From a virus (taxonomy: Duplodnaviria; Caudoviricetes), in IMG/VR virus record IMGVR_UViG_3300028048_003180, positions 1 to 64,000 of that record: a DNA stretch of 64,000 bases; one strand, 5' to 3'. A model generated the notes under the pieces. The model was not told where the DNA came from and did not search any database. It saw only the letters and a program-made list of their open reading frames with translations. Shown here piece after piece: positions 4,737 to 62,359 of this stretch. The position numbers and the translations under genes were made by a program. Each line of letters starts with the position of its first letter. Position 1 is the stretch's first letter.

Positions 4737-5672
4737 ATGAACCATTCTTTTAATACAAAAGTAGCAGAACTGTATGGCCTTGAAGAAGCGATTCTTCTTG
4801 AAAACATTTATTTCTGGTGCAAAAAGAACGAAACCAACAACAAGCTAACACAAGGAAAACCGTGGACATACAACACGGTCAAAGCCTTTAACTTGCAGTT
4901 CAAATATTTATCTCCTGCTATCATTACCAGGGCATTAAAGAATCTTGTCAAATACGAATTGATAGAGGTAGGGGAGTTTAATACGAATGCTTATGACCAT
5001 ACAAAATGGTATTGCATAACAAACAAGGCACGTTCCTTTTTTGAGGATACGGACAGCAGTTCAAGTTATGAAGACAACAAATCGGATTGCGAAAATAATA
5101 ATCCGATTTACGAAAATAACAGTTCGATTTGCGAAAATAGCAAATCGAATATGAAAAAGTCGCAAATCAATACAACAGATATAAACACAGATGGTAATAC
5201 AGGTGGTAATACAAATATAAATTCTCCCGGCGAACCGCCGGAGGGGGAAAACAAGGTCAAGCCTTGTGAAAAACCAAAGCCTAAAAAGGCAGATTCTTTT
5301 CCCCAAGAATACTACGACCAGATATACCAGGCATACCTTGAGAACTACAGGAAGCTTTATCCAGACAAGGGAGACCCTGACATAATGTATGGGTATCTGA
5401 ACAAGAGCATAAAAAATGCCCTAAAGACATACGGCTTTGAAAAGGTTCTTGAGGCAGTCAAGATTTCGGTAAACCACCAGTTCTTGCTGGACAATGGCTA
5501 TCCATTGTCCTTCATCTTCGGAAGCAAGGAATTGCCCATGCTGATTAACAGGACTTTCAGTACACAGCAGAAGTCTGGATATACTGGCAAGCCTTTTTAC
5601 AGGGGCTTTGATAAGGAAGCTCTGAACAGGAAAATATCCCTGCTTGACGGAGTGGAGGCAATTTATGAATGA
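4737..5672 (+). CDS. Phage replication initiator
   Basis: N-terminal HSFNTKVAELYGLEEAILLENIYFW winged-helix-type region; internal iteron-like repeats; precedes DnaC-like gene. Confidence 0.8.
   Translation: MNHSFNTKVAELYGLEEAILLENIYFWCKKNETNNKLTQGKPWTYNTVKAFNLQFKYLSPAIITRALKNLVKYELIEVGEFNTNAYDHTKWYCITNKARSFFEDTDSSSSYEDNKSDCENNNPIYENNSSICENSKSNMKKSQINTTDINTDGNTGGNTNINSPGEPPEGENKVKPCEKPKPKKADSFPQEYYDQIYQAYLENYRKLYPDKGDPDIMYGYLNKSIKNALKTYGFEKVLEAVKISVNHQFLLDNGYPLSFIFGSKELPMLINRTFSTQQKSGYTGKPFYRGFDKEALNRKISLLDGVEAIYE
5058..5222 (+). repeat. Iteron-like repeats (probable replication origin)
   Basis: CGAAAATA at 5090, 5111 and 5132 (21-bp period), then 12-bp AT-rich repeats 5169-5222. Confidence 0.6.
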
Positions 5673-6501
5673 CGAGATAAAGACACTTAGCTTTCCGACT
5701 TTTTCGGCTTTGAATGTTGAGGTTGTCAAAGAGTATGACACTCAAGTGGAATGTACGAAACACGGAATGTACGATGCACACGTAACACTTTATTCAGACG
5801 GTGAAGAATCAAAAACCAGATGTCCCAAGTGCATAGAGGAAGAGGTTGAGGCTGAGAGGGCTGAAAGGGAGAAGGCTAGGAAGATAGAGAATGACAAATA
5901 CTGCCACTCTCTTAACATACAACCTGAATATTATGACAAGATGATTTGGGATTACGAACCTAAAACTTTTTCACAAGAGAAGGCAAAGGAAGCTGTGCAG
6001 GATCTGATAAATAACAGGACGGGTAAGCTTATACTGTTAGGGGCCAATGGCGTGGGAAAAAGTTTACTGGCGAGTATTGCCACAAAATCACTAGGAGGAA
6101 GGATTTATACGATGTACGAAATCTCGACTATAATACGCCAGGCTTACACACAAAAGGCAACAAAGTCAGAGATGGAAATCGTAAAGGAACTGGCAAACCT
6201 TCCGTTCCTTGCCATTGATGAAGTGGGAAGAATTTCAAATACGGAAGCCGTTCAGAACTGGTTTTCATTCATCCTTGACCAAAGGCATACAAAAAAGCTG
6301 CCGACCATGCTTACGGGCAACCTGCACTTCAGAAAGAACTGCCCGGACAACGGATGCCCAAAATGCTTTGAGAACTACTTCGACGACGACATCTTAAGCC
6401 GTCTCAGGGAAGATACAACAATCGTTTTGATGAAAGGTCCTGACAAGAGGGCAGGACAAAACTTCAAGTTCTTTGCTGAACCAGAGGAGAAAAAATCTTG
6501 A
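5665..6501 (+). CDS. DnaC/IstB-like AAA+ helicase loader
   Basis: Walker A GANGVGKS, Walker B LAIDEVG, N-terminal CxxH/CxxC, ILSRL. Confidence 0.85.
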   Translation: MNDEIKTLSFPTFSALNVEVVKEYDTQVECTKHGMYDAHVTLYSDGEESKTRCPKCIEEEVEAERAEREKARKIENDKYCHSLNIQPEYYDKMIWDYEPKTFSQEKAKEAVQDLINNRTGKLILLGANGVGKSLLASIATKSLGGRIYTMYEISTIIRQAYTQKATKSEMEIVKELANLPFLAIDEVGRISNTEAVQNWFSFILDQRHTKKLPTMLTGNLHFRKNCPDNGCPKCFENYFDDDILSRLREDTTIVLMKGPDKRAGQNFKFFAEPEEKKS

Positions 6502-7109
6502 TTGAAAGAATTGAAGCATACTACGGCAAGGAACTCGGGAGCGAGGAAAAAAGATGGGCTGAGCAGAATCTTGGCGGACTGACAGGAGATTACCAAGACA
6601 AGTTCATGGACACGCTTGGCAACATCTGTAAAAAAGGAAAGGGATGCCCTGATATTTCCTCCATGTCAAAAGCCTTGCAAGCCGTAACCGGGAAAGCTCC
6701 GAGGGTTTACTTCTGGAGCGTCTGCCTTGAGTGCGGTACAGGATATGACTACCGCCTTGAGATGTGTCCAAAATGTTATGAGAAGGGGCTTAAATGTACG
6801 GACAAAGAGGTGAAGGTCTCTGACTTCCCGCCTCCAATGAACGTAATACGCTACAATAAGACGTTCCTGAGATACACGAACGAGAAAGGCCAGCGGGAAA
6901 TGTCCTGCTACAACTGCGAAGGCAGGAAGTTCAGCTACTGCTCAAACTTCGGCAACCCTAACTGGGACTGCCGTGACTACAGGAACTGCAAGTGCAATGC
7001 CTGCTGCTCAATGGAGAGAAGGTCAAATTCAAAGATGAAGGAACAGAAGGGAGAGAAGCATTACGCTGTCCCTTTAAGGGCTCAAAAACAAGAAATCCCC
7101 TTGCTTTAG
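6498..7109 (+). CDS. Cys-rich zinc-binding protein; last residues supplied by the IS left end
   Basis: Several CxxC motifs; removing the IS gives the ending PLRAVG-stop. Confidence 0.7.
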   Translation: MIERIEAYYGKELGSEEKRWAEQNLGGLTGDYQDKFMDTLGNICKKGKGCPDISSMSKALQAVTGKAPRVYFWSVCLECGTGYDYRLEMCPKCYEKGLKCTDKEVKVSDFPPPMNVIRYNKTFLRYTNEKGQREMSCYNCEGRKFSYCSNFGNPNWDCRDYRNCKCNACCSMERRSNSKMKEQKGEKHYAVPLRAQKQEIPLL

Positions 7110-8392
7110 CTGGGGGATGAATTGCGATTTTTATTTCTTAACTAATTTTATGGGAATGTGATTATGGCATACAGAGCATATAAATACAGAATCTATCCGA
7201 CTCAGAAACAGGCGGAGCTGATAAACAAAACTATCGGCTGCGCAAGATTCGTGTATAATGCCTTACTTGCTGATGCAAAGAAACAGTATAAGGAGACTGG
7301 TAAATCAAAGATTAAAACACCAGCTTCCCTAAAGAATGAATATGAATGGCTAAAAGAGGTTGACAGTCTTGCCTTATGCAATTCACAGCTTCATATTCAG
7401 ACGGCTTATAAAAACTTTTTCAATAAGACTGCAAGATTTCCAGAGTTTCATTCCAAACACAAAGGAAAACAGACTTATACTACAAATAGCGTGAATGGAA
7501 CAATCAGAATCGAAAAAGGAAAATTAAAACTTCCAAAGCTGGGATTTGTAAAGATTGTACTTCATAGATTTTGCAAAGGGGTTATTAAATCTGTAACTGT
7601 TCAAAGAACACCAACTAATAAATATTTTGTTTCCGTTCTTACAGAACAGACTCCAGAAGTTATTGAAAAAGATGTAACACAGGAAAAAGTTCTTGGAATA
7701 GATATGAGTTTCAAAGAACTTGCAGTATATTCAGACGGTACGAAAGCCAAATACCCGAAGTTCTACCGCAAAGCTCAGAGAAAACTCGCTCATGTACAGC
7801 GCAATTTCAGCCGCACAAAGGAAGGGTCTAAAAGACACGAAAAAGCGCGGCTTAGGGTTGCAAAAGTATTTGAGAAAATATCCAACCAGAGGAAAGATTT
7901 TCTTGATAAGGAGTCCGCACGAATAGCCAGGAAGTACGATGCTGTAGTAGTTGAAAAGCTCAATATGCGTGCTATGGCTAACCGAGGAATGAAGAACGGC
8001 AAGACAGTGAATGACATTGGCTTCGGTATGTTCAGGGATATGCTGAGGTATAAACTCGGCAGAAATCTCGGACAGCTGATTGAGGCTGATAAGTTCTATC
8101 CGTCTAGCCAGCTTTGTTCTAACTGCGGATTCAAAAATATTGCTGTGAAGAACCTTACTGTCCGTGAATGGGACTGCCCTCAGTGTGGCTTACATCACGA
8201 CAGAGACGTGAACGCGGCAATAAACCTTATGAAATATTATACCGTTGCAACGACGGGAATTGAAGCTCGTGGAGAAAAAGTAAGACCGATAGCGAATGTA
8301 CGTCGTACAAACACTAAAGGCATTTTCGATGAAGCGAGAAAAATTGTAGGTTAGAAACTATAAGCCCCCACCTTCAGGTGGGGGTAGTTGAC
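7078..8392 (+). mobile_element. IS200/IS605-family tnpB-only element, copy 1
   Basis: TTTAA 5' of a left-end hairpin ATCCCC...GGGGAT; right end AAGCCCCCACCTTCAGGTGGGGGTAGTTGAC; no tnpA. Confidence 0.85.
7164..8354 (+). CDS. tnpB: TnpB RNA-guided endonuclease
   Basis: RAYKYRIYP HTH; RuvC D (GIDM), E (VVEKL), D (HDRDVNAA); CxxC...CxxC zinc finger. Confidence 0.95.
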   Translation: MAYRAYKYRIYPTQKQAELINKTIGCARFVYNALLADAKKQYKETGKSKIKTPASLKNEYEWLKEVDSLALCNSQLHIQTAYKNFFNKTARFPEFHSKHKGKQTYTTNSVNGTIRIEKGKLKLPKLGFVKIVLHRFCKGVIKSVTVQRTPTNKYFVSVLTEQTPEVIEKDVTQEKVLGIDMSFKELAVYSDGTKAKYPKFYRKAQRKLAHVQRNFSRTKEGSKRHEKARLRVAKVFEKISNQRKDFLDKESARIARKYDAVVVEKLNMRAMANRGMKNGKTVNDIGFGMFRDMLRYKLGRNLGQLIEADKFYPSSQLCSNCGFKNIAVKNLTVREWDCPQCGLHHDRDVNAAINLMKYYTVATTGIEARGEKVRPIANVRRTNTKGIFDEARKIVG

Positions 8393-13241: not shown

Positions 13242-14568
13242 ATCGCCCGTGGTTAATTAGGTTATTAAGGAGTTAAGTTATAACGATGAAGAATCTGGTG
13301 TTGAAAGTGAGAATATATCCGACTCAAGAACAGGCAGTCTTAATCAACAAGACATTAGGCTGTTGTCGTCAGGTATACAATATAATGCTCGCCTCACGCT
13401 TAGACTTCTACGACAGGAATATAAAGGACAGGGAGCTTACCAGGCAGGAGAAAACTGCAATCTATAAGTCATACAAAGCGCCTACAGAAAAAGAGCTGAA
13501 ACAGCAGTATGAGTACATGAAAGAGGTAAGTGCGGTTGCATTGCAGCAGTCTAGGCGTGACCAAGAAGGCGCATTTCAAAAATTCTTCAAAGGCCTTGCA
13601 AAGTTCCCGAAGTTCCACTCGAAGAAACAGAAGAATTCATTCAGGGAATTGAATTGCAAGTTCTTTTGGAACGCAAGAAGAATAACTCTTCCAAAAATTG
13701 GTGAGGTAAGGTTCAGGAATAGGGAACTTCCTAAGTGGCTCAGCGCAGATGATAAAGTCTGCAACATAACTGTAAGCAAGAATCCCAGCGGCCAGTATTA
13801 CGCAAGCATACTTTTTGAGGTGGCAGAGCAGCCTAAGCTTAAAAGCGAAAACCAAGCAGTAGGCTTAGACTTCTCTCCAGCTGATATGTATGTTTCGTCA
13901 TGCGGAACGACCGGAAAGGATTTTGGATATATACCGCAGAAGCAGGCACACCTTAAACAGCTTAGGAAGCTGGAAAGGCGGCTTGCAAGAAAGCAGAAAG
14001 GCTCAGGAAACCGTGAGAAGGCAAGGATTAAGGTTGCCAGGATGGAGCAGCATATCGCCGACTCAAGAAAAGACTGGATTGAGAAAGAATCTCTCAGGCT
14101 TGTCAGAAACTACAATGTCATAGGCATTGAGGATTTGACTACAAGGGGTCTTTTGAAGGCAAGCAGGAACGCAAGAAACTATGTTGACACGTCTTGGGGA
14201 ACATTTACAACGAGGCTTGAGGAGAAAGCAAAGCGTTACGGTTGTTCAGTCGTGAGGTCCGACAGGTTCTTTCCGAGTTCCAAACTCTGTCATATCTGCG
14301 GGTATAAAAAGACGGACTTGACGCTTTCAATGCGCCACTGGACATGCCCTGTATGTCATACGGAGCATAACCGTGACTTGAATGCGGCAATCAACCTGAA
14401 GAATAACGCGATTAAGATACTCAGGGAAGCTGAGGAATTTAGGTCTGCGGAGGGCGTTGAAGGATTGGTCAAGCAGGTTTTGGCTGAGTCTGGAGCGTCC
14501 GTTGAAACAGAAAGAGAAGTTTCGTGAGAACTCTCAAGATCCCCCTGCTTCAGCTGGGGGTACTTCAA
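13198..14568 (+). mobile_element. IS200/IS605-family tnpB-only element, copy 2
   Basis: TTAT 5' of left end; hairpin GGGCGA...ATCCCTT...AAGGGAT...TCGCCC; right end CCCCCTGCTTCAGCTGGGGGTACTTCAA. Confidence 0.85.
13286..14527 (+). CDS. tnpB: TnpB RNA-guided endonuclease
   Basis: KVRIYP; RuvC GLDF / IEDL / NRDLNAA; zinc finger. Confidence 0.95.
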   Translation: MKNLVLKVRIYPTQEQAVLINKTLGCCRQVYNIMLASRLDFYDRNIKDRELTRQEKTAIYKSYKAPTEKELKQQYEYMKEVSAVALQQSRRDQEGAFQKFFKGLAKFPKFHSKKQKNSFRELNCKFFWNARRITLPKIGEVRFRNRELPKWLSADDKVCNITVSKNPSGQYYASILFEVAEQPKLKSENQAVGLDFSPADMYVSSCGTTGKDFGYIPQKQAHLKQLRKLERRLARKQKGSGNREKARIKVARMEQHIADSRKDWIEKESLRLVRNYNVIGIEDLTTRGLLKASRNARNYVDTSWGTFTTRLEEKAKRYGCSVVRSDRFFPSSKLCHICGYKKTDLTLSMRHWTCPVCHTEHNRDLNAAINLKNNAIKILREAEEFRSAEGVEGLVKQVLAESGASVETEREVS

Positions 14569-54300: not shown

Positions 54301-54895
54301 CCAGACGAACTTTATCAACGAACTTACCATATACAACGACAAAGACTATTCAGAGCGGCTCTGCGTGTCATACACAGGCTTGCTCAGGCAGGTTCTGCCG
54401 GGGGCAACGTCACCGGACGACTGGGGGAATGCCGCACCCGGAAGCATAACAAGCGTACCTTTCGCAAAGGCGACAAAGGAGGGGAACGCCTGCTTTACAA
54501 ACGTCCCTATTGAAGAGCTTCCGGCTACAAAGCGGTTCGTTACTGGCACCCAGTCGGCCTACAACCTTCAGGATACGGTGACTGACATATACGGGCAGAA
54601 CCCTGAGAATTTAGTCCTTGACCAGGCCAACCTCATAAACACGGCAGAAGGTTGCCCTGTGCTTGTTAATGAAGGAGTCCCCGTCACAAAAGCCTACGAG
54701 GGGGAGATAAAGATAGACAAGGAAAGCAAGTACGTTGCTTACTGGAATAAGGGTGGGGTCAGGTGTGATTCAGGAACCGCAAGGAGCGTATTCGAGGCGG
54801 CAAGAGAAGCCTGGCGAGCCAGCAGGAGTACGGAATGGGGACTGACACAAGAACAGGCCAGCACACTTGACCTTGAAGACATGGAGGAATTATGA
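48344..54895 (+). CDS. Tail tip / host-specificity protein (lambda I+J-like)
   Basis: Ubiquitin-like N-terminus, Gly-rich TM, PFPVVVG, FN3-like regions, LSAISANMG. Confidence 0.8.
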   Translation: MAKVIVFNDIFDTRDTNVIDVEKVQTVRDVLYEGKYNVRDYSSQVEVYDPDTGETSYLAIKDDGGQALNVCVKVNGLVKDLSYEIQPADAVVVEILPASSVSKTIEGTLGTIFTVVGGLAMAVGAAMLTVGTGGIGLAVGLMVAGGLLVAAGTYMIMDSLKFDYPDEQKAGKSLTEEQRKKLEGATNQNLIDMPFPVVVGKIDVTPYTVGTQYNELVYNGSSWDEFFGSRMRTTQLLAIGYAPLLLKDIKFDELVSAHNNNNILNGELSYLNNDNDVPGHRPSTFNGKPQVADIESKWRGNKVRMEISQFGRDRSIYPFTVKQQKVDAPLLYCYDGQYAEVANDRHISWQGASLQCGMRTNTIRFSDGIPYKVVVGIDIPGGLWEANNIKEKTDTRYSKIPMNLVVQWRPVYKYISDNGLDSAGAAGDVYDRNRDGYGVLRYSGWRNFSGTSYLDGKWAGPVKQCTYTGNSLSYFVYKDGNTPAYRDGYYGYFVNNSGYTLTGTFHKVQKKTDEATLYREKFLSLIRDWERQHTTRESYINAISPTKGYVTVVNEDGTRAVMPYQAYWKSYIYPEIKESVPDSVRLSLEDQARTYARNKVASQDADWCASHQNYNNGTTWHKMSSQEIIDYSNAGKLNVSFHNEKQKTWVGPGNYIGAPQGYWHTETVRVYDYSSASSDVLIQNGVPYAQDNPYANSIAQIEVNANKGLSAGTGANSNPTWFGVRCFSLGEFSLGKTFYQRDMSEPNFQSALNIGANDVDNAKDEMRFEICAELTQEDILDLLNRNPRSIRAGEDGEVPELLGKTNCIIDSIQVRVVRLTPCYIDNNSGEIKYKYSDVVKWSYLRTYCLDKQRLLDSIDNKTEDAIVGGKAVKIAPIDCSLETFDSRDPDIHEYPTWNTWDILSFRSVPVAKEDEEKLCLLGVEAEPDPLGVMSDSLNKISLTAHAVTPSLRSNYIRYWYTDGIGYWKYDSYDTLETKDSEELYLTFSQRDFRWKRTTAEEFTETPKSVLKKNGTTRVGYYFSEMHNAWDKKWFPAKIEKRQCIQYITDANGEIVYNEAGDPLIEMTRDGNDWIPFIYKEMARNTDSLGRWVASNAFLRTFTEQNSIGQLLGFACGQSLGRNAYFYNSLNDDKFIRYWYDDVSKGKYYYFDTDDTVLDLEHKPVWSDEGDPYDLPQWTYDGWAEGSEIEFRSASLTEIGSGYYYSIRKADNAFNMMALKEAFEYTEAIDIGKSAVGPIPYKCNMYITNQQKALALMQTILVTARAFWFFDEYGRFEVHNDKPKKNPVLMITDENSLQSSNTRDFSRGIAGYHITFQDESNGFQTGEVYVLREGQTRNSHTRDIIDQTINGVTNAEQAWCLGAYMLACSITQKESWSRKLNHVGGSLTIGSLVSVQSSTLMIGTDTSGRIVRLIEDENFIYGFICDLTYDYREEYGQNGENVQGCSIFQAGAKSHSKVVTLRFASAAQQQQGITVETEDPEYAINSGTYANLKGQTNLVLFEKKIIKQTERELEQGNDEETGTKVFTQFIPKPGDVVAFGNVGTITKLGVVYQLSFDEKHHVTAGIYPYYESIYHAGRSLPVLESSMTKLPRNDNAPVDFSATFSDVSAAIDEANKNTAAAINGLVNGGGDSSAVPDAPVMLEAKAFEKEILLKARADGAGLKNSVVEVDWQLFKWTPDVETADENLWDWEDAGTTPTLSGEYVFDRDTDGYPEREDLNGTESAWFFRCRIKNQYGNDSEWSRKMAVQTYRYGTWLLGAPAIVPRVTSRCVTLKLSQPPRAGDREQYGTVRYRIEVMRPDIDENYFKPSIDLNPYAAEENYKDGEGYVISDGTYIQVMPLKGQDSELIENTLYMFRVTAENETSISESSVINVITECDSIRDIVKARETAKEAYISQLSAISANMGCISSGSFNGSDTNFWELSSFIDDFNVNHHEGAFRVGGVDEFLHVIPVDEDGNDITSDTPVSVEPASYRIEFQIGNFKVKSDQTNFINELTIYNDKDYSERLCVSYTGLLRQVLPGATSPDDWGNAAPGSITSVPFAKATKEGNACFTNVPIEELPATKRFVTGTQSAYNLQDTVTDIYGQNPENLVLDQANLINTAEGCPVLVNEGVPVTKAYEGEIKIDKESKYVAYWNKGGVRCDSGTARSVFEAAREAWRASRSTEWGLTQEQASTLDLEDMEEL

Positions 54896-57800
54896 GCTAC
54901 GAAGTAACATTAGGCAATTATCAGAGCGTAATTGGTGCGCTCCCTGCAAATACAGCATCCACCCCTTATGATGTCGTCATTACGGATGGGGAAAACTTGG
55001 CTCCTAATGTCTTAAGGCCTGTGCAAGCGGCGAAAAGATATGTCAATTTGAGTTTTACCCCGGCAACAGTTGAAAGTGATAGCATCCGTAATCTCTTTAG
55101 AGCAGGCAGTGTCACCTTGTACCTCGTATCATGCGACATGTCAAATCTGGACCTCTCGAACGTTACGGACGCGGTTTCTATGTTTGGGAACGTCAGTCTA
55201 AAAACTGTAGTCTTGCCGCCTATGGAGAATTTAACTACGGCAGCCGAAATGTTTTCTTGGTGTGACTCCCTTGAAAGCATTACTTTGCCTGCCATGCCTG
55301 AAGTTACTAATGTGGGCGGCATGTTCCAAGTCTGTCGTGCACTCAAAAACATTACTTTGCCTGCTACTATGCCTAAAGTTACAGCGGCATACAGTATGTT
55401 CCAGGGGTGTGAATCCCTTGAAAGCATTACTTTGCCTGCCATGCCTGAAGTTACTAATGTGAAGGGTATGATTTTACAGTGTTCCGCCCTTAAAAAAGTT
55501 GACATATCAGGGCTCGCCTCAGGAACAAATACGGAAAACCTATTTCGGCTTTGCCCGGCCCTTAAGGAAATAACGGTAGCTACCACCAATTACGAAACTT
55601 ACGTAAGTGCATTGGATGAAAATACTGCGGCAACGCCCTATGACGTAATTATTGCAGATGATACATTCGACGGTGATGTTCTTTTAAATGATATTTTTTC
55701 TTCTATGGTGCAAAGTGGAAGGTTCGTGAAGATTTCTTTTAGTGGAGGAACTTTTGGTGGTTTTACATTATGTTCAGATTATGCTTATCCAGAATCTGAC
55801 TACTTGATAGAATGTGACATGTCATCAATGGCTTGCACGAACCTAATTTATGTTCAGGGTTTTCGCAACTGTAAAAACTTAAAGAAAGTAAAGATGCCTA
55901 ATATTACATCATCAGCCCCATGTACCGCAAATGGATGTTTTTTTGGTTGCGCTTCTCTTACTGAGGTAGAGTTTTTACCAGCAAACTTCGATTTAACTCA
56001 AGACATGTTTTCTCTTTGCAGTTCCCTCGAGCAAGTCGATTTGTCAAAAATACAATTAAAAGATACGGGACGTATGTTCCAAAATTGCACAGCCCTTAAG
56101 GACGTAGTTTTGCCAGATTTGTCAAGTGTATCTTCTGCTGCGTCCATGTTTGTTCGTTGTAGTAATCTTGTCACGGTAGATATATCAACATTAACTGCAG
56201 CCGCTAATGTCTATGATCTTTTTCTTGGTTGCTCCTCGCTTAAAACGGTAGTGTTGCCCGCAAGTATGGCGTCAACGAATGCTAAAGGTATGTTCTACGG
56301 TTGTAGTAGCCTTGAGGATATTACGCTGCCTGTTATGCCTGAAGTTACTAATGCGAATGAAATGTTTTATCGGTGCTCTGCACTCAAGACTGCTGACGTA
56401 TCAGGGATTGCGGCAACTGCAGATGTTTCCAATATATTTCAGGAGTGTACGGTCCTTGAGGAGATAACGGTTACTACAGTCAATTATGAAACAATAGTAA
56501 GTGCATTGAATGAAAACACTGCGGCTACTCCTTATGGCATCGTAATATCAGACGGGGAAAACCTTAGGCCTTCTGCCATGAAGGTGGATGAGACGGGAAG
56601 GTACGTCAACCTAGGTTTTAGGCCAGCCGTTGTTGAAAGACAAGACATTGAAAGTCTTTTCGATTACAACAGCACAATAACTCATCAGTATCTTATATCA
56701 TGCGACATGTCGAACCTTGACATGTCAAATGTTACGTATGCAAAAGGTGCATTCCATTCAAACAAAGGGTTAAAAACTGTTGTCATGCCGTCCTTAAGAA
56801 ATGTATGGAATTCAGCGGAGATGTTCTTAGGGTGTAATGCACTTGAAAACGTTACACTTCCTGACATGTCTAAAGTTACTGATGCAGTAAGCATGTTTTA
56901 CAACTGTCGTTCACTTGAACACGTAGACATAGGGACATTCAGAAAACTGGAAGATGCATTAAATATGTTTTGCAGCTGTCATTCCCTTGTAGAAATTGAC
57001 GCGACAAACCTTACGGAACTCACCGATGCAGAGAGTATGTTCGCAGATTGTGGAGCACTTGAAAACGTTACACTTCCTGACATGTCTAAAATTACTAAAG
57101 CATCATATATGTTTCAAGAATGCCTTTCTCTTGAAAGCATAGACTTATCTCCATTAGAAAATGTCGTAAATGCACGCAGTATGTTTTTTAAATCAGGAAT
57201 TACAACCGTAAACATTTCGGGGATGAACAACCTTAAATATGCAGCAAATATGTTCAAGCAATGTGCTTCCCTGGAAAGCGTTGATATTTCTGGTATGGAA
57301 AATGTTGAGGATGCAGAGGAGATGTTCGCCGTCTGCGAAGCGTTGACGCATGTAAACATATCTGGAATGGGAAACGTTACAAATGCCACAGGTATGTTCT
57401 TTGGAGACCAGACCCTTGAGTCAGCTAATTTGACAAGCCTAGTGAGTGCAACTAATGGAGATGGTATGTTTTCCTCCTGTGTCAGCCTAGAAGAGGTTTC
57501 AGTTCCGCCCGCGTTAACCAACGTCAACGGGTTGTTTATGAACTGTCCAGACTTGACTACCGTAAAAAATTTCAAATGGGATTTCTCCAATATGGAGAAT
57601 ACAACCAACTGTTTTTCCGGCTGCTCCTCCCTTACCCACCTATACTATTACTCTGACAACGACCCTGCCCTTATAATTCCTAATGACGACTGGCTTCTTT
57701 ATTATAAGGGGGGGGCGTCAGCCTCTGAGGGATATACCCTTACGGCTTACGACAGGAAAGGGAATGTGGTACTCTCGGAATCTCTTGGCAGGCCGCAGAT

Positions 57801-58479
57801 TCACCCTATAGGACAGACAAACTCCCTGTTATTCGACACACAGCCAATAGATTGTGCAAACATCATAAAGTCGCCCTACCTCTTCGGAATAAATGACGGC
57901 AAGACGCTGGACGCTGCGGGCGGGACCCTTGCCATACTTGCAAAGGACACTGACAAGATAGTTACGAACATATTTGAAAGCAAGGCTATAAGGGATATGG
58001 TGAGCAACATCACCCCGGCAGGTATAATCCAGATGTACGGCGGAACTACGGCTCCTGAAGGATGGCTCTTTTGTAACGGAGAGGAAGTCCCTACGGCCCA
58101 ATATCCGAGGCTGTACGCCGCAATAGGGAATACGTATGGAACTCCGAAGACGACGGGGAACTTTGTCCTTCCTGATTTCCGCGAATGCGTACCTGTCGGA
58201 GCAGGACAAAGCAACAGGTCAGCCATATCAACCCATGATGTATTCAGCCTCGGCCAATACAAGAATGACTGTATACAGAACATCACTGGATGGGGCACAG
58301 GAACCCCCGTTAATTCTAGTGGTGGGGGAGCATTTTATAGTGACCCGGTAGACTTTGGTGGTTTTGGAGGTGGAAATTACCGTTTTAAGCAGTTACTGTT
58401 CGATGCCTCCCGCCAAGTCCGTACCAGCTCAGTAACACGAACTAAACAGATTGGTACAAACTACATCATTAAGTATTAA
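54892..58479 (+). CDS. Tail fibre with BspA-type leucine-rich repeats and C-terminal tail-collar domain
   Basis: Many MFxxCxxLxxxxL repeats; PAGIIQMYGG...GWLFCNG...LPDFR...NYIIKY. Confidence 0.85.
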   Translation: MSYEVTLGNYQSVIGALPANTASTPYDVVITDGENLAPNVLRPVQAAKRYVNLSFTPATVESDSIRNLFRAGSVTLYLVSCDMSNLDLSNVTDAVSMFGNVSLKTVVLPPMENLTTAAEMFSWCDSLESITLPAMPEVTNVGGMFQVCRALKNITLPATMPKVTAAYSMFQGCESLESITLPAMPEVTNVKGMILQCSALKKVDISGLASGTNTENLFRLCPALKEITVATTNYETYVSALDENTAATPYDVIIADDTFDGDVLLNDIFSSMVQSGRFVKISFSGGTFGGFTLCSDYAYPESDYLIECDMSSMACTNLIYVQGFRNCKNLKKVKMPNITSSAPCTANGCFFGCASLTEVEFLPANFDLTQDMFSLCSSLEQVDLSKIQLKDTGRMFQNCTALKDVVLPDLSSVSSAASMFVRCSNLVTVDISTLTAAANVYDLFLGCSSLKTVVLPASMASTNAKGMFYGCSSLEDITLPVMPEVTNANEMFYRCSALKTADVSGIAATADVSNIFQECTVLEEITVTTVNYETIVSALNENTAATPYGIVISDGENLRPSAMKVDETGRYVNLGFRPAVVERQDIESLFDYNSTITHQYLISCDMSNLDMSNVTYAKGAFHSNKGLKTVVMPSLRNVWNSAEMFLGCNALENVTLPDMSKVTDAVSMFYNCRSLEHVDIGTFRKLEDALNMFCSCHSLVEIDATNLTELTDAESMFADCGALENVTLPDMSKITKASYMFQECLSLESIDLSPLENVVNARSMFFKSGITTVNISGMNNLKYAANMFKQCASLESVDISGMENVEDAEEMFAVCEALTHVNISGMGNVTNATGMFFGDQTLESANLTSLVSATNGDGMFSSCVSLEEVSVPPALTNVNGLFMNCPDLTTVKNFKWDFSNMENTTNCFSGCSSLTHLYYYSDNDPALIIPNDDWLLYYKGGASASEGYTLTAYDRKGNVVLSESLGRPQIHPIGQTNSLLFDTQPIDCANIIKSPYLFGINDGKTLDAAGGTLAILAKDTDKIVTNIFESKAIRDMVSNITPAGIIQMYGGTTAPEGWLFCNGEEVPTAQYPRLYAAIGNTYGTPKTTGNFVLPDFRECVPVGAGQSNRSAISTHDVFSLGQYKNDCIQNITGWGTGTPVNSSGGGAFYSDPVDFGGFGGGNYRFKQLLFDASRQVRTSSVTRTKQIGTNYIIKY
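58238..58289 (+). repeat. Left 52-bp inverted repeat inside the fibre gene
   Basis: ATGTATTCAGCCTCGGCCAATACAAGAATGACTGTATACAGAACATCACTGG. Confidence 0.95.
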
Positions 58480-58753
58480 TACTTTATAATGTAATTTATA
58501 CCCAACTCCTTTGTTCTGGTAACTGAACTTGTCCTTACATTTCTAGAAGCGTCAAAGCTAACAAGTCTTCGAGTTCTGGCGTCATCGTTCATAGTAACTT
58601 TAGGGCTCGTATACTCAAGGTCAGTAAGAGAAAAAGCTCCGTAAGGCTCAAAACCAAAAGGAATATTAGCACTGCCTCCCATGCCGTACATCTTAAATCC
58701 GCCAGTGATGTTCTGTATACAGTCATTCTTGTATTGGCCGAGGCTGAATACAT
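58476..58753 (-). other. Silent alternative fibre C-terminus
   Basis: VFSLGQYKNDCIQNITG + different middle + RTSSVTRTK...NYIIKY-stop. Confidence 0.9.
58702..58753 (-). repeat. Right 52-bp inverted repeat
   Basis: Exact reverse complement of 58238-58289. Confidence 0.95.
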
Positions 58754-58779
58754 TTTTTTTTGCTTGACATTGGGATTCT

Positions 58780-58808
58780 TTGCAAAAAAAATACCACAAT
58801 CTTATGAT
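58780..58808 (+). promoter_or_regulatory. A-tract promoter (probably leaderless)
   Basis: TTGCAA-17-TATGAT; ATG after a 6-nt gap. Confidence 0.6.
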
Positions 58809-58814
58809 GGTCTT

Positions 58815-59786
58815 ATGCTATCAATAGTAGTTTTGTTTTGTGAGAAAGACATGTGGCATATACCGGGACTGGTACGCCACATGAAGGAAACCTTCAAGGA
58901 TGAGTACGAGCTTGTGCTTATAGACAACAGGAAGGACAAATCTACGCCTCCGCCTGACGTAGGATGGCCAGTCTATGAGGCATCAGGGGACGGGACTTTC
59001 GAGGGGCGCAGGTTCTCACTGACGAAATGCAGGGGAAAATACGTCTGGTTCGTGGATGCGGACGACATAACCCTTGACTGGAGCGGTTTTGTAGACCTTG
59101 ACAGTCAGGATGCGGACTTCCTGTTCTTCAATGCGGCGGAGCTCAGGGATGAAAGGTTCGGGCCTATGTACAGCGGTGACATTCCTACATTCCTCATGCA
59201 GCAGGGGGATGTACTCCATGAGGATATAAGGCTTGAAGTGAACCTGGATTCGTTCCTTCACGTGTACCTCCCGCTCTGGAACAAGTTCATAAGGCTTGAT
59301 TTTGCAAGGCGGGTCTATGACATGGTGCCTCCCCTTCCCTCTGTCACAGACCACGAAGACTCCCTTATGAGCGCAATGCTCCTCAAACATGCAGAGTCTG
59401 TTTCTGACTGGACGGACAAGACCATTTACATCTATGACTCAAGGACAAGCACTTCATCGGTTGGAACGTCTCAGACGGTCGCGAAGTATAAGGCACTGAA
59501 CAAGGGGCAGCAGAGGCTGCTGGAGTTTGCAAAGGGACACTTTACGGAGAAGGAGTGGTCAGACCTTGGCCTTGACCTGTATTTCTACGGTGACTATTAC
59601 TGGAGGTTCCGGAAAATCCAGTCCTTGCCGGAGAAAGTGGAGGTCTTGAGGTTTATTACCGAAGAGTTCAGTTATGAGAACATACTGGGAATGCTGAAGT
59701 TTGCAGAGCAGTTTGACGAGTACAACCGCCGGATTATCATGGAAAGGTGTATCACCCGTTACTGCCTGAAGGATGTAAAGTTCTAA
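58815..59786 (+). CDS. Glycosyltransferase family 2
   Basis: LSIVV...ELVLIDN...GKYVWFVDADD, LWNKF, ED. Confidence 0.85.
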   Translation: MLSIVVLFCEKDMWHIPGLVRHMKETFKDEYELVLIDNRKDKSTPPPDVGWPVYEASGDGTFEGRRFSLTKCRGKYVWFVDADDITLDWSGFVDLDSQDADFLFFNAAELRDERFGPMYSGDIPTFLMQQGDVLHEDIRLEVNLDSFLHVYLPLWNKFIRLDFARRVYDMVPPLPSVTDHEDSLMSAMLLKHAESVSDWTDKTIYIYDSRTSTSSVGTSQTVAKYKALNKGQQRLLEFAKGHFTEKEWSDLGLDLYFYGDYYWRFRKIQSLPEKVEVLRFITEEFSYENILGMLKFAEQFDEYNRRIIMERCITRYCLKDVKF

Positions 59787-61936: not shown

Positions 61937-62359
61937 ATGTCAAAGAACACAAACATGGTTGTCGTGTCAGGCAACATCGTAAGGGACGTCGAGCTCAATG
62001 AGTCACAGACTTTAATCCGCTTCTGCATTGCGAACTCCGAGTCAGTGAAGAAGGACGGCAAGTGGGAGGAGTACACCAACTACTTCGACATCAAGGGATT
62101 CGGCGGTACCGTAAAGCTTGCACCTTACCTTGTGAAAGGTACTAAGGTAATCGTTACCGGATCACTCCATCAGGACAGATGGGAGAAGGACGGCCAGAAG
62201 AACAGCCGCATTGTCATTAACTGTAGCAGCCTTGAGTTCGGAGGCAACGGAAAGAAGAAGGCTGAAAGCCAGGATGAAGGTGCACCAGCCGGGAGTTCAG
62301 GAAGCGGAGAGTTCAAAGAAGACCTCCCCTGGGATGAAAACGAAGATATTCCCTTCTAA
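61937..62359 (+). CDS. ssb: Single-stranded DNA-binding protein
   Basis: VSGNIVRD, KGTKVIVTGSL, acidic EDIPF tail. Confidence 0.95.
   Translation: MSKNTNMVVVSGNIVRDVELNESQTLIRFCIANSESVKKDGKWEEYTNYFDIKGFGGTVKLAPYLVKGTKVIVTGSLHQDRWEKDGQKNSRIVINCSSLEFGGNGKKKAESQDEGAPAGSSGSGEFKEDLPWDENEDIPF

Follow-up and report, generated by a model that had tools for sequence, protein, structure and literature searches.

At the 3' end of a tail-fibre gene, the viral DNA studied here carries a short segment held between two inverted repeats. Does this segment form a switch that would exchange the tip of the fibre, and if so, what would turn it? The initial annotation of the window (the whole stretch analysed, 64,000 nt, corresponding to positions 1 to 64,000 of the 108.7-kb IMG/VR record IMGVR_UViG_3300028048_003180) had proposed a minimal host-range switch driven in trans by the integrase, a host recombinase or homologous recombination.

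Two fibre tips between inverted repeats

The left arm (58238-58289) and the right arm (58702-58753) are each 52 nt long, 100% complementary to one another and separated by 412 nt, and together they bracket a putative invertible unit of 516 bp including the arms (58238-58753), as described in the initial annotation. Allowing up to three mismatches, the 52-nt arm matched exactly two places in the window (0 expected from shuffles). The pair is the sole inverted repeat longer than 17 nt in the 108.7-kb record when arms within 10 kb of each other are considered, and the 20-mers of the repeat, searched with up to three mismatches, had no further match in the record or in the host flanks examined. 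The palindrome pointed out earlier, CTGTATACAG (10 bp), is indeed present in the 52-nt repeat; as chance alone predicts about one per 25 such repeats, we gave it no weight.

The fibre gene (54892-58479, plus strand, 1195 aa) runs through the left arm into tip A (58290-58479, plus strand, stop at 58477-58479), the variable head and returning C-terminal strand that are currently expressed. The arm itself encodes (D)VFSLGQYKNDCIQNITG and, based on the repeat search and codon comparison, is the presumed crossover region. Read on the minus strand, the right arm opens into tip B (58476-58701, stop at 58476-58478) in the same frame as the arm-encoded VFSLGQYKNDCIQNITG; translation and homology to the fibre P0021 identify tip B as a silent alternative head with an intact frame. 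Both tips share the ending NYIIKY*, and their stops overlap tail to tail at 58476-58479 inside AAGTATTAATACTT. The in-frame exchange of two C-termini suggested at first is thus borne out by both translations. The arrangement is asymmetric in size, with a 1195-aa gene converging on a cassette of 91 codons that has no 5' part of its own and has the inverted repeat in common with the gene.

Homology stops precisely at the outer edge of the right arm. In the interval beyond it (58754-58808), a T9 run abuts the arm and is succeeded by the promoter region, with promoter-like hexamers, of the next gene, which is GT2-like (58851-59786). If the fibre transcript read through, it would hold a 52-bp stem closed just before the U-run. 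A terminator scan gave nothing that accounts for the 52-nt repeat.

Comparing the codons of the two arms, we observed that 16 of 16 complete codons inside the repeat are identical. Outside the repeat, the tips have 31 identical residues and use the same codon at only 10 of them, and their nucleotide identity is about 52%; the synonymous sites of the tips are therefore saturated. At the outside rate, 16 identical codons out of 16 would be expected with p ~1e-8, so that the DNA itself, beyond the protein, is kept or homogenised. Judged by codon usage, this conservation is as expected of a putative recombination substrate. The reading frame of tip B stays open over 91 codons, free of stops and frameshifts, and over 90 residues its product is 60% identical to a segment that lies inside P0021, a fibre of another phage, and is expressed there. 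It therefore encodes a real domain variant. When fibres or fragments bearing tip B were sought, only the window's own 71-aa ORF and one 60% relative were retrieved.

The 1195-aa fibre is built of BspA-type LRR/DUF285 repeats (Pfam LRR_5, 2.3e-58; DUF285, 5.1e-31) and has a phage tail collar domain at its C-terminus (Collar, PF07484, 1.8e-19, residues 1044-1100). The constant N-terminal half of the collar domain is encoded upstream of the crossover region (58021-58237, plus strand). The structure of the fibre tip was modelled as a monomer from a 23-sequence alignment. Confidence was high for the collar half (pLDDT >90) and the last strand, YIIKY (about 87), and low for the variable middle or head (<50). 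For this model, Foldseek placed two structures of T4 gp12 at the top, namely the protein within the baseplate (5IV5, E 6.3e-5) and the receptor-binding domain on its own (1OCY, E 6.7e-5). In this model the gp12-like fold is assigned to the collar domain; the variable head is of low confidence, and for its fold we propose nothing beyond the gp12 match. By its modelled position, the exchanged piece corresponds to the receptor-binding head of T4 gp12. Each cassette comprises this head together with the last strand, running back to the collar; this accounts for the conservation at the ends of tips A and B. The head of gp12 carries an HxH metal-binding motif on the threefold axis (His445/His447; PMC3004832). 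The motif, which many relatives also have, is absent from both tips in the window, which read QNITG, and the heads of a related family described below (L043) read Q-x-H-x-H.

The fibre shaft (54892-57900 of the window) is of the BspA-type LRR/DUF285 kind, and a 1023-aa LRR_5 protein is encoded by the host within a few kb of the attachment site (L012:5131-8202). The phage fibre and the host surface protein may have a common repeat ancestry.

If the segment is a switch, a reciprocal crossover within the 52-bp repeats would flip the 516 bp, so that the constant part of the fibre would lose tip A and carry tip B, fused in frame, in its place. Both tips replace the receptor-binding part distal to the collar, and the two states would therefore have two adsorption specificities.

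Related loci in other lineages

We screened about 100 loci encoding related collar domains in all six frames and found the tail-to-tail layout in three further lineages (L055; L101/L102; L040/L042/L043). In all lineages the crossover region, like the silent heads, falls at the same protein position, around GQ[FY]K[DN]D, and the cassettes are packed stop to stop. More distant relatives of the fibre (P0004, P0006 and P0007) showed neither a reversed cassette nor a repeat.

Two of the lineages are further loci in which a single spare tip occurs and no invertase is seen. The first, on the provirus fragment L055 (2073-2620), has one silent head between arms that agree at 81% over 58 nt. The gene after it is tail-assembly-chaperone-like, and a recombinase was absent from the 29 kb examined. 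The second, on the identical metagenome contigs L101 and L102 (L101:3971-4496), also has one silent head, with arms 73% alike over 77 nt, followed by the same chaperone-like gene and then by host genes. In both, the arms hold a perfect core of 17-19 nt (AAYATCGCTTCTGTCGA), while neighbouring synonymous sites differ. In its sequence, this core looks like a short site-specific core. Across the relatives, perfect cores measured only 16-22 nt.

In the third lineage (L040/L042/L043), two to four intact silent heads lie in a row, each starting with CGGTCGGACAGTTTAAGGA (VGQFKD) right after the preceding stop. The largest array, on L043 (IMGVR_UViG_3300031998_000456, 5232-7077), consists of five collar/HxH heads, one expressed and four silent, all of them intact. 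Directly 3' of this array a 228-aa protein of the Resolvase family is encoded (PF00239, E 4.3e-34), whose best solved match is 4M6F, a chain titled DNA-invertase. L040 and L043 are 99.8% identical as far as the crossover site and unrelated beyond it, where they carry different heads, and in L042 one cassette between two sites is missing. These differences show that the sites of this family have been used. Within each of the near-identical pairs L101/L102 and L042/L043, the orientation was the same.

Searches for further copies of the locus itself returned little. A scan of genome contigs recovered only remote collar proteins (Bradyrhizobium, Chitinophaga and an alphaproteobacterium), and exact scans of viral and metagenome contigs for the repeat core gave 0 matches. 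The locus is covered by one assembly, plus an identical IMG/VR copy, and queries with the fibre or with the gene downstream of it led to the same ENA contig only. The host contig is k141_223054 in ENA, and the source sample has the ENA analysis number ERZ27252073. The same integrase or methylase also occurs in the runs and samples SRR7971123, SRR11059933, SRR8442993, JGI 3300026525 and 3300037691. From the shared layout, the switch would be one of a family of cassette switches of the collar head that recurs between lineages and, in at least one of them, has a serine DNA invertase adjacent.

Candidate catalysts

The record is a provirus. A 25-bp direct repeat, the att core, is located at the 3' end of a tRNA-Lys(CTT), with one copy 88-112 nt upstream of window position 1 (L012:9889-9913) and the other about 2.2 kb beyond the record's end (L024:6876-6900). 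With att copies at both ends, the prophage is therefore complete and measures about 111 kb (record 108.7 kb). The tRNA-Lys sits in a His-Arg-Lys tRNA cluster. NCBI MAG records assign the proteins of the host flanks to Treponema sp.

Among site-specific recombinases, the record encodes one tyrosine integrase (PF00589, 1-1155). Neither PF00239 (Resolvase) nor the IS110/Piv-type families PF01548 and PF02371 gave a match in the 108.7 kb, and no invertase was found among the called genes in about 17 kb of host flanks. The initial annotation had seen no invertase adjacent to the cassette, which holds prophage-wide, and had proposed to look for an invertase and similar sites in the rest of the genome; neither was found in the 108.7-kb record. 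An IS110/Piv-type invertase was rejected as the catalyst, as no such protein is present in the record. Next to the putative switch, genes encode a weakly GT2-like protein and an S24 repressor. The integrase is the only recombinase in the window, as had been stated, to which two TnpB genes should be added. TnpB proteins (OrfB_IS605/Cas12f-like) are encoded three times in all, at 7158-8354 and 13286-14527 of the window and at 65824-67125 of the whole record (G000), and TnpA was not among the genes examined. A 1272-aa protein on the minus strand (record G000, 67184-70999; L021:3184-6999) is interrupted by an intein that carries a homing-endonuclease domain of the LAGLIDADG kind.

Outside the window, at 72595-73269 of the record, the prophage encodes an Erf/Rad52-like annealase (PF04098, 2.6e-21; phrog_1097 'Erf-like ssDNA annealing protein', 4.9e-61). 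It adjoins an SbcD-like phosphoesterase in a recombination module (record G000, 71269-73269; L021:7269-9269). Two SSB genes are present, one in the window (61937-62359) and one near the right end.

Judged from these sequences, the locus is likely to be a working switch that exchanges the receptor-binding head of the fibre by DNA inversion. In its favour are a perfect repeat that is the only one of its kind in the record, an intact tip B and the recurrence of the layout in relatives; against it stand the one orientation observed, in the single assembly covering the locus and its identical copy, and the like orientation within each of the pairs L101/L102 and L042/L043. Of the host-range switch first proposed, the switch itself gains from the layout in three lineages, one of them with a serine invertase, from the DNA-conserved repeat and from the intact tip B, whereas the integrase as its driver loses ground. 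We infer both that flipping occurs and what catalyses it.

The crossover would most likely be catalysed by a site-specific invertase supplied in trans, from the Treponema host or from a co-resident element. We rank such an enzyme first among the catalysts, although only tentatively. Where an enzyme is visible, in L043, it is a serine invertase; the orphan relatives keep only short cores; and both trans-acting invertases and orphan loci have been documented (PMC6109161; PMC9881135). On the other hand, neither the 111-kb prophage nor about 17 kb of host flanks encodes an invertase, and the DNA examined holds no second site, though one might be expected of a global invertase. The 52-nt perfect repeat is also longer than a typical invertase site, and homology-driven exchange would fit it equally well. 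The explanation as a whole, a two-state inversion of the fibre tip by an invertase in trans, has in our estimate slightly less than an even chance of being correct.

A recombinase-independent route is the next to be considered and, though rather unlikely, has several observations on its side. The Erf/Rad52-like annealase of the phage during replication, or host RecA, would act on the 52-bp repeats and produce inversion at low frequency. Recombination driven by annealases works with about 35-50 nt of homology. The phage has its annealase beside an SbcD-like nuclease as well as two SSBs, and the prophage holds no invertase. The arms are identical wherever homology is possible, with a sharp drop at both edges, which is the pattern of gene conversion, and the perfect cores of the relatives reach only 16-22 nt. 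In published work, some inversions survived deletion of the nearby recombinase (PMC9881135). Yet the only enzyme visible, in one lineage, is a serine invertase; relatives with arms 73-81% identical cannot use homology but nevertheless retain the layout; and long perfect repeats also occur with site-specific systems. That there are invertase-less fibre-tip switches, flipped through the annealase or RecA on a perfect repeat of about 50 nt, long enough for efficient recombination by an annealase, rather than by a site-specific recombinase, seems to us, from sequence, still somewhat less probable; if true, they would form a distinct, homology-programmed class of phage phase variation.

The segment could also be a frozen relic, in which an ancestral switch run by an invertase lost this enzyme and became locked on tip A before tip B decayed. 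A complete prophage encoding no invertase and the single orientation observed are both consistent with such a loss. However, all 91 codons of tip B are free of stops and frameshifts and the 52 nt of the repeat match perfectly, although synonymous sites of the two tips are saturated; any loss must therefore have been very recent. We regard a relic as unlikely.

Far less probable is an additional role in which the prophage tyrosine integrase (1-1155) would invert the segment. It is the sole site-specific recombinase in the record, and there is a precedent in Rin, a phage-encoded tyrosine invertase (PMC6109161). Nevertheless, the 25-bp att core with 200 nt on each side has no 8-mer in common with the repeat, and 7-mers in common occur at chance level. 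The att core in tRNA-Lys thus resembles the repeat no more than by chance, and the integrase, named as a possible driver at first, is disfavoured. An assembly artefact, by fold-back or a chimeric join, is highly improbable even though a single metagenome assembly is the source, because the cassettes differ (about 52% nucleotide identity) and are each a homologous reading frame, the 52-nt repeat is shorter than the assembler k of 141, and the same layout occurs at independent loci from other samples.

Lying in a complete prophage, with a 52-nt perfect repeat, an annealase and no invertase, the locus is well suited to telling a borrowed enzyme from homology-driven exchange.

Comparison with known inversion systems

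Mu Gin, P1 Cin and p15B Min are the classical serine-invertase switches of tail fibres. The Mu G/Gin, P1 C/Cin and p15B Min systems resemble the locus in having inverted repeats in the 3' part of the fibre gene and a constant N-terminal part with alternative C-termini. They have an invertase of the Resolvase family beside or within the segment, an adjacent one being found also in the relative L043, whereas the Treponema prophage has no such gene. Its segment measures 0.5 kb and holds no assembly-chaperone genes, compared to about 3 kb in the Mu/P1 type, and it differs from Mu, P1 and p15B in swapping a gp12-like collar/head and in having a spirochaete host. The gix site may have CCTCGG in common with the 52-nt repeat, a likeness that is no more than a lead. 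Systems of the Gin/Cin/Hin/Min type use 26-bp crossover sites with a 2-bp core, together with a recombinational enhancer and Fis (PMC4513852).

A closer match in size is found in the Bifidobacterium prophages 689b-1 and Bb423phi2, where an invertible locus of about 500 bp has no flanking recombinase and a trans-acting invertase has been proposed (Mavrich et al., 2018, PMC6109161). It is like the present locus in its length of about 0.5 kb, in combining the 3' end of a structural gene with a small reversed gene and in having no recombinase at its flanks. There, the repeat is 8 bp long and both orientations were seen between relatives, while here the repeat is 52 bp, one orientation was seen, and the protein family is another. 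The Rin shufflon of Bifidobacterium prophages, which is served by a tyrosine invertase, has C-terminal cassettes of 95-100 residues (PMC6109161), similar in size to the fibre tips described here. That a tiny cassette with no invertase beside it is unusual, as the initial annotation held, was therefore overstated; Rin cassettes of 95-100 residues and an invertase-less locus of about 500 bp had both been published in 2018 (PMC6109161).

Gene-altering programmed inversions were reported from bacterial genomes with recombinase genes enriched nearby and with tail fibres as an enriched class of targets (Milman et al., 2023, PMC9881135). The confirmed targets include a PF07484 collar protein and a PilV/phage-tail-collar fusion gene confirmed by long reads (PMC9881135). 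The likeness to our locus lies in a long expressed gene that faces a truncated silent copy and has an inverted repeat in common with it; those cases are from bacterial genomes with recombinases nearby, whereas the present one concerns a phage fibre with none. In Treponema denticola, hsdS inversions have been studied by experiment (PMC7672463), which we count in favour of an invertase acting in trans.

The L043 array is alike in the domain concerned, the crossover position (GQFKDD), the tail-to-tail overlapping stops and the last strand. It differs in its four silent heads, compared to one here, its imperfect repeats of 22-48 nt, the retained HxH motif and the serine invertase immediately downstream. 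We found no published description of this five-head array.

With this locus, tail-fibre inversion switches would be known also from a large prophage of gut or rumen Treponema, in which hardly any phages have been characterised, and the gp12/collar receptor-binding head emerges as a recurrent switching unit in several unrelated phage lineages. For the prediction of host range from metagenomes, the findings mean that an annotated fibre would be only one of the tips that can be displayed. Among the known tail-fibre inversion switches, the locus counts as a real and probably functional orphan. Particular to it are a complete prophage that carries no invertase, the spirochaete host, the exchange of a gp12-type head and an unusually long perfect repeat.
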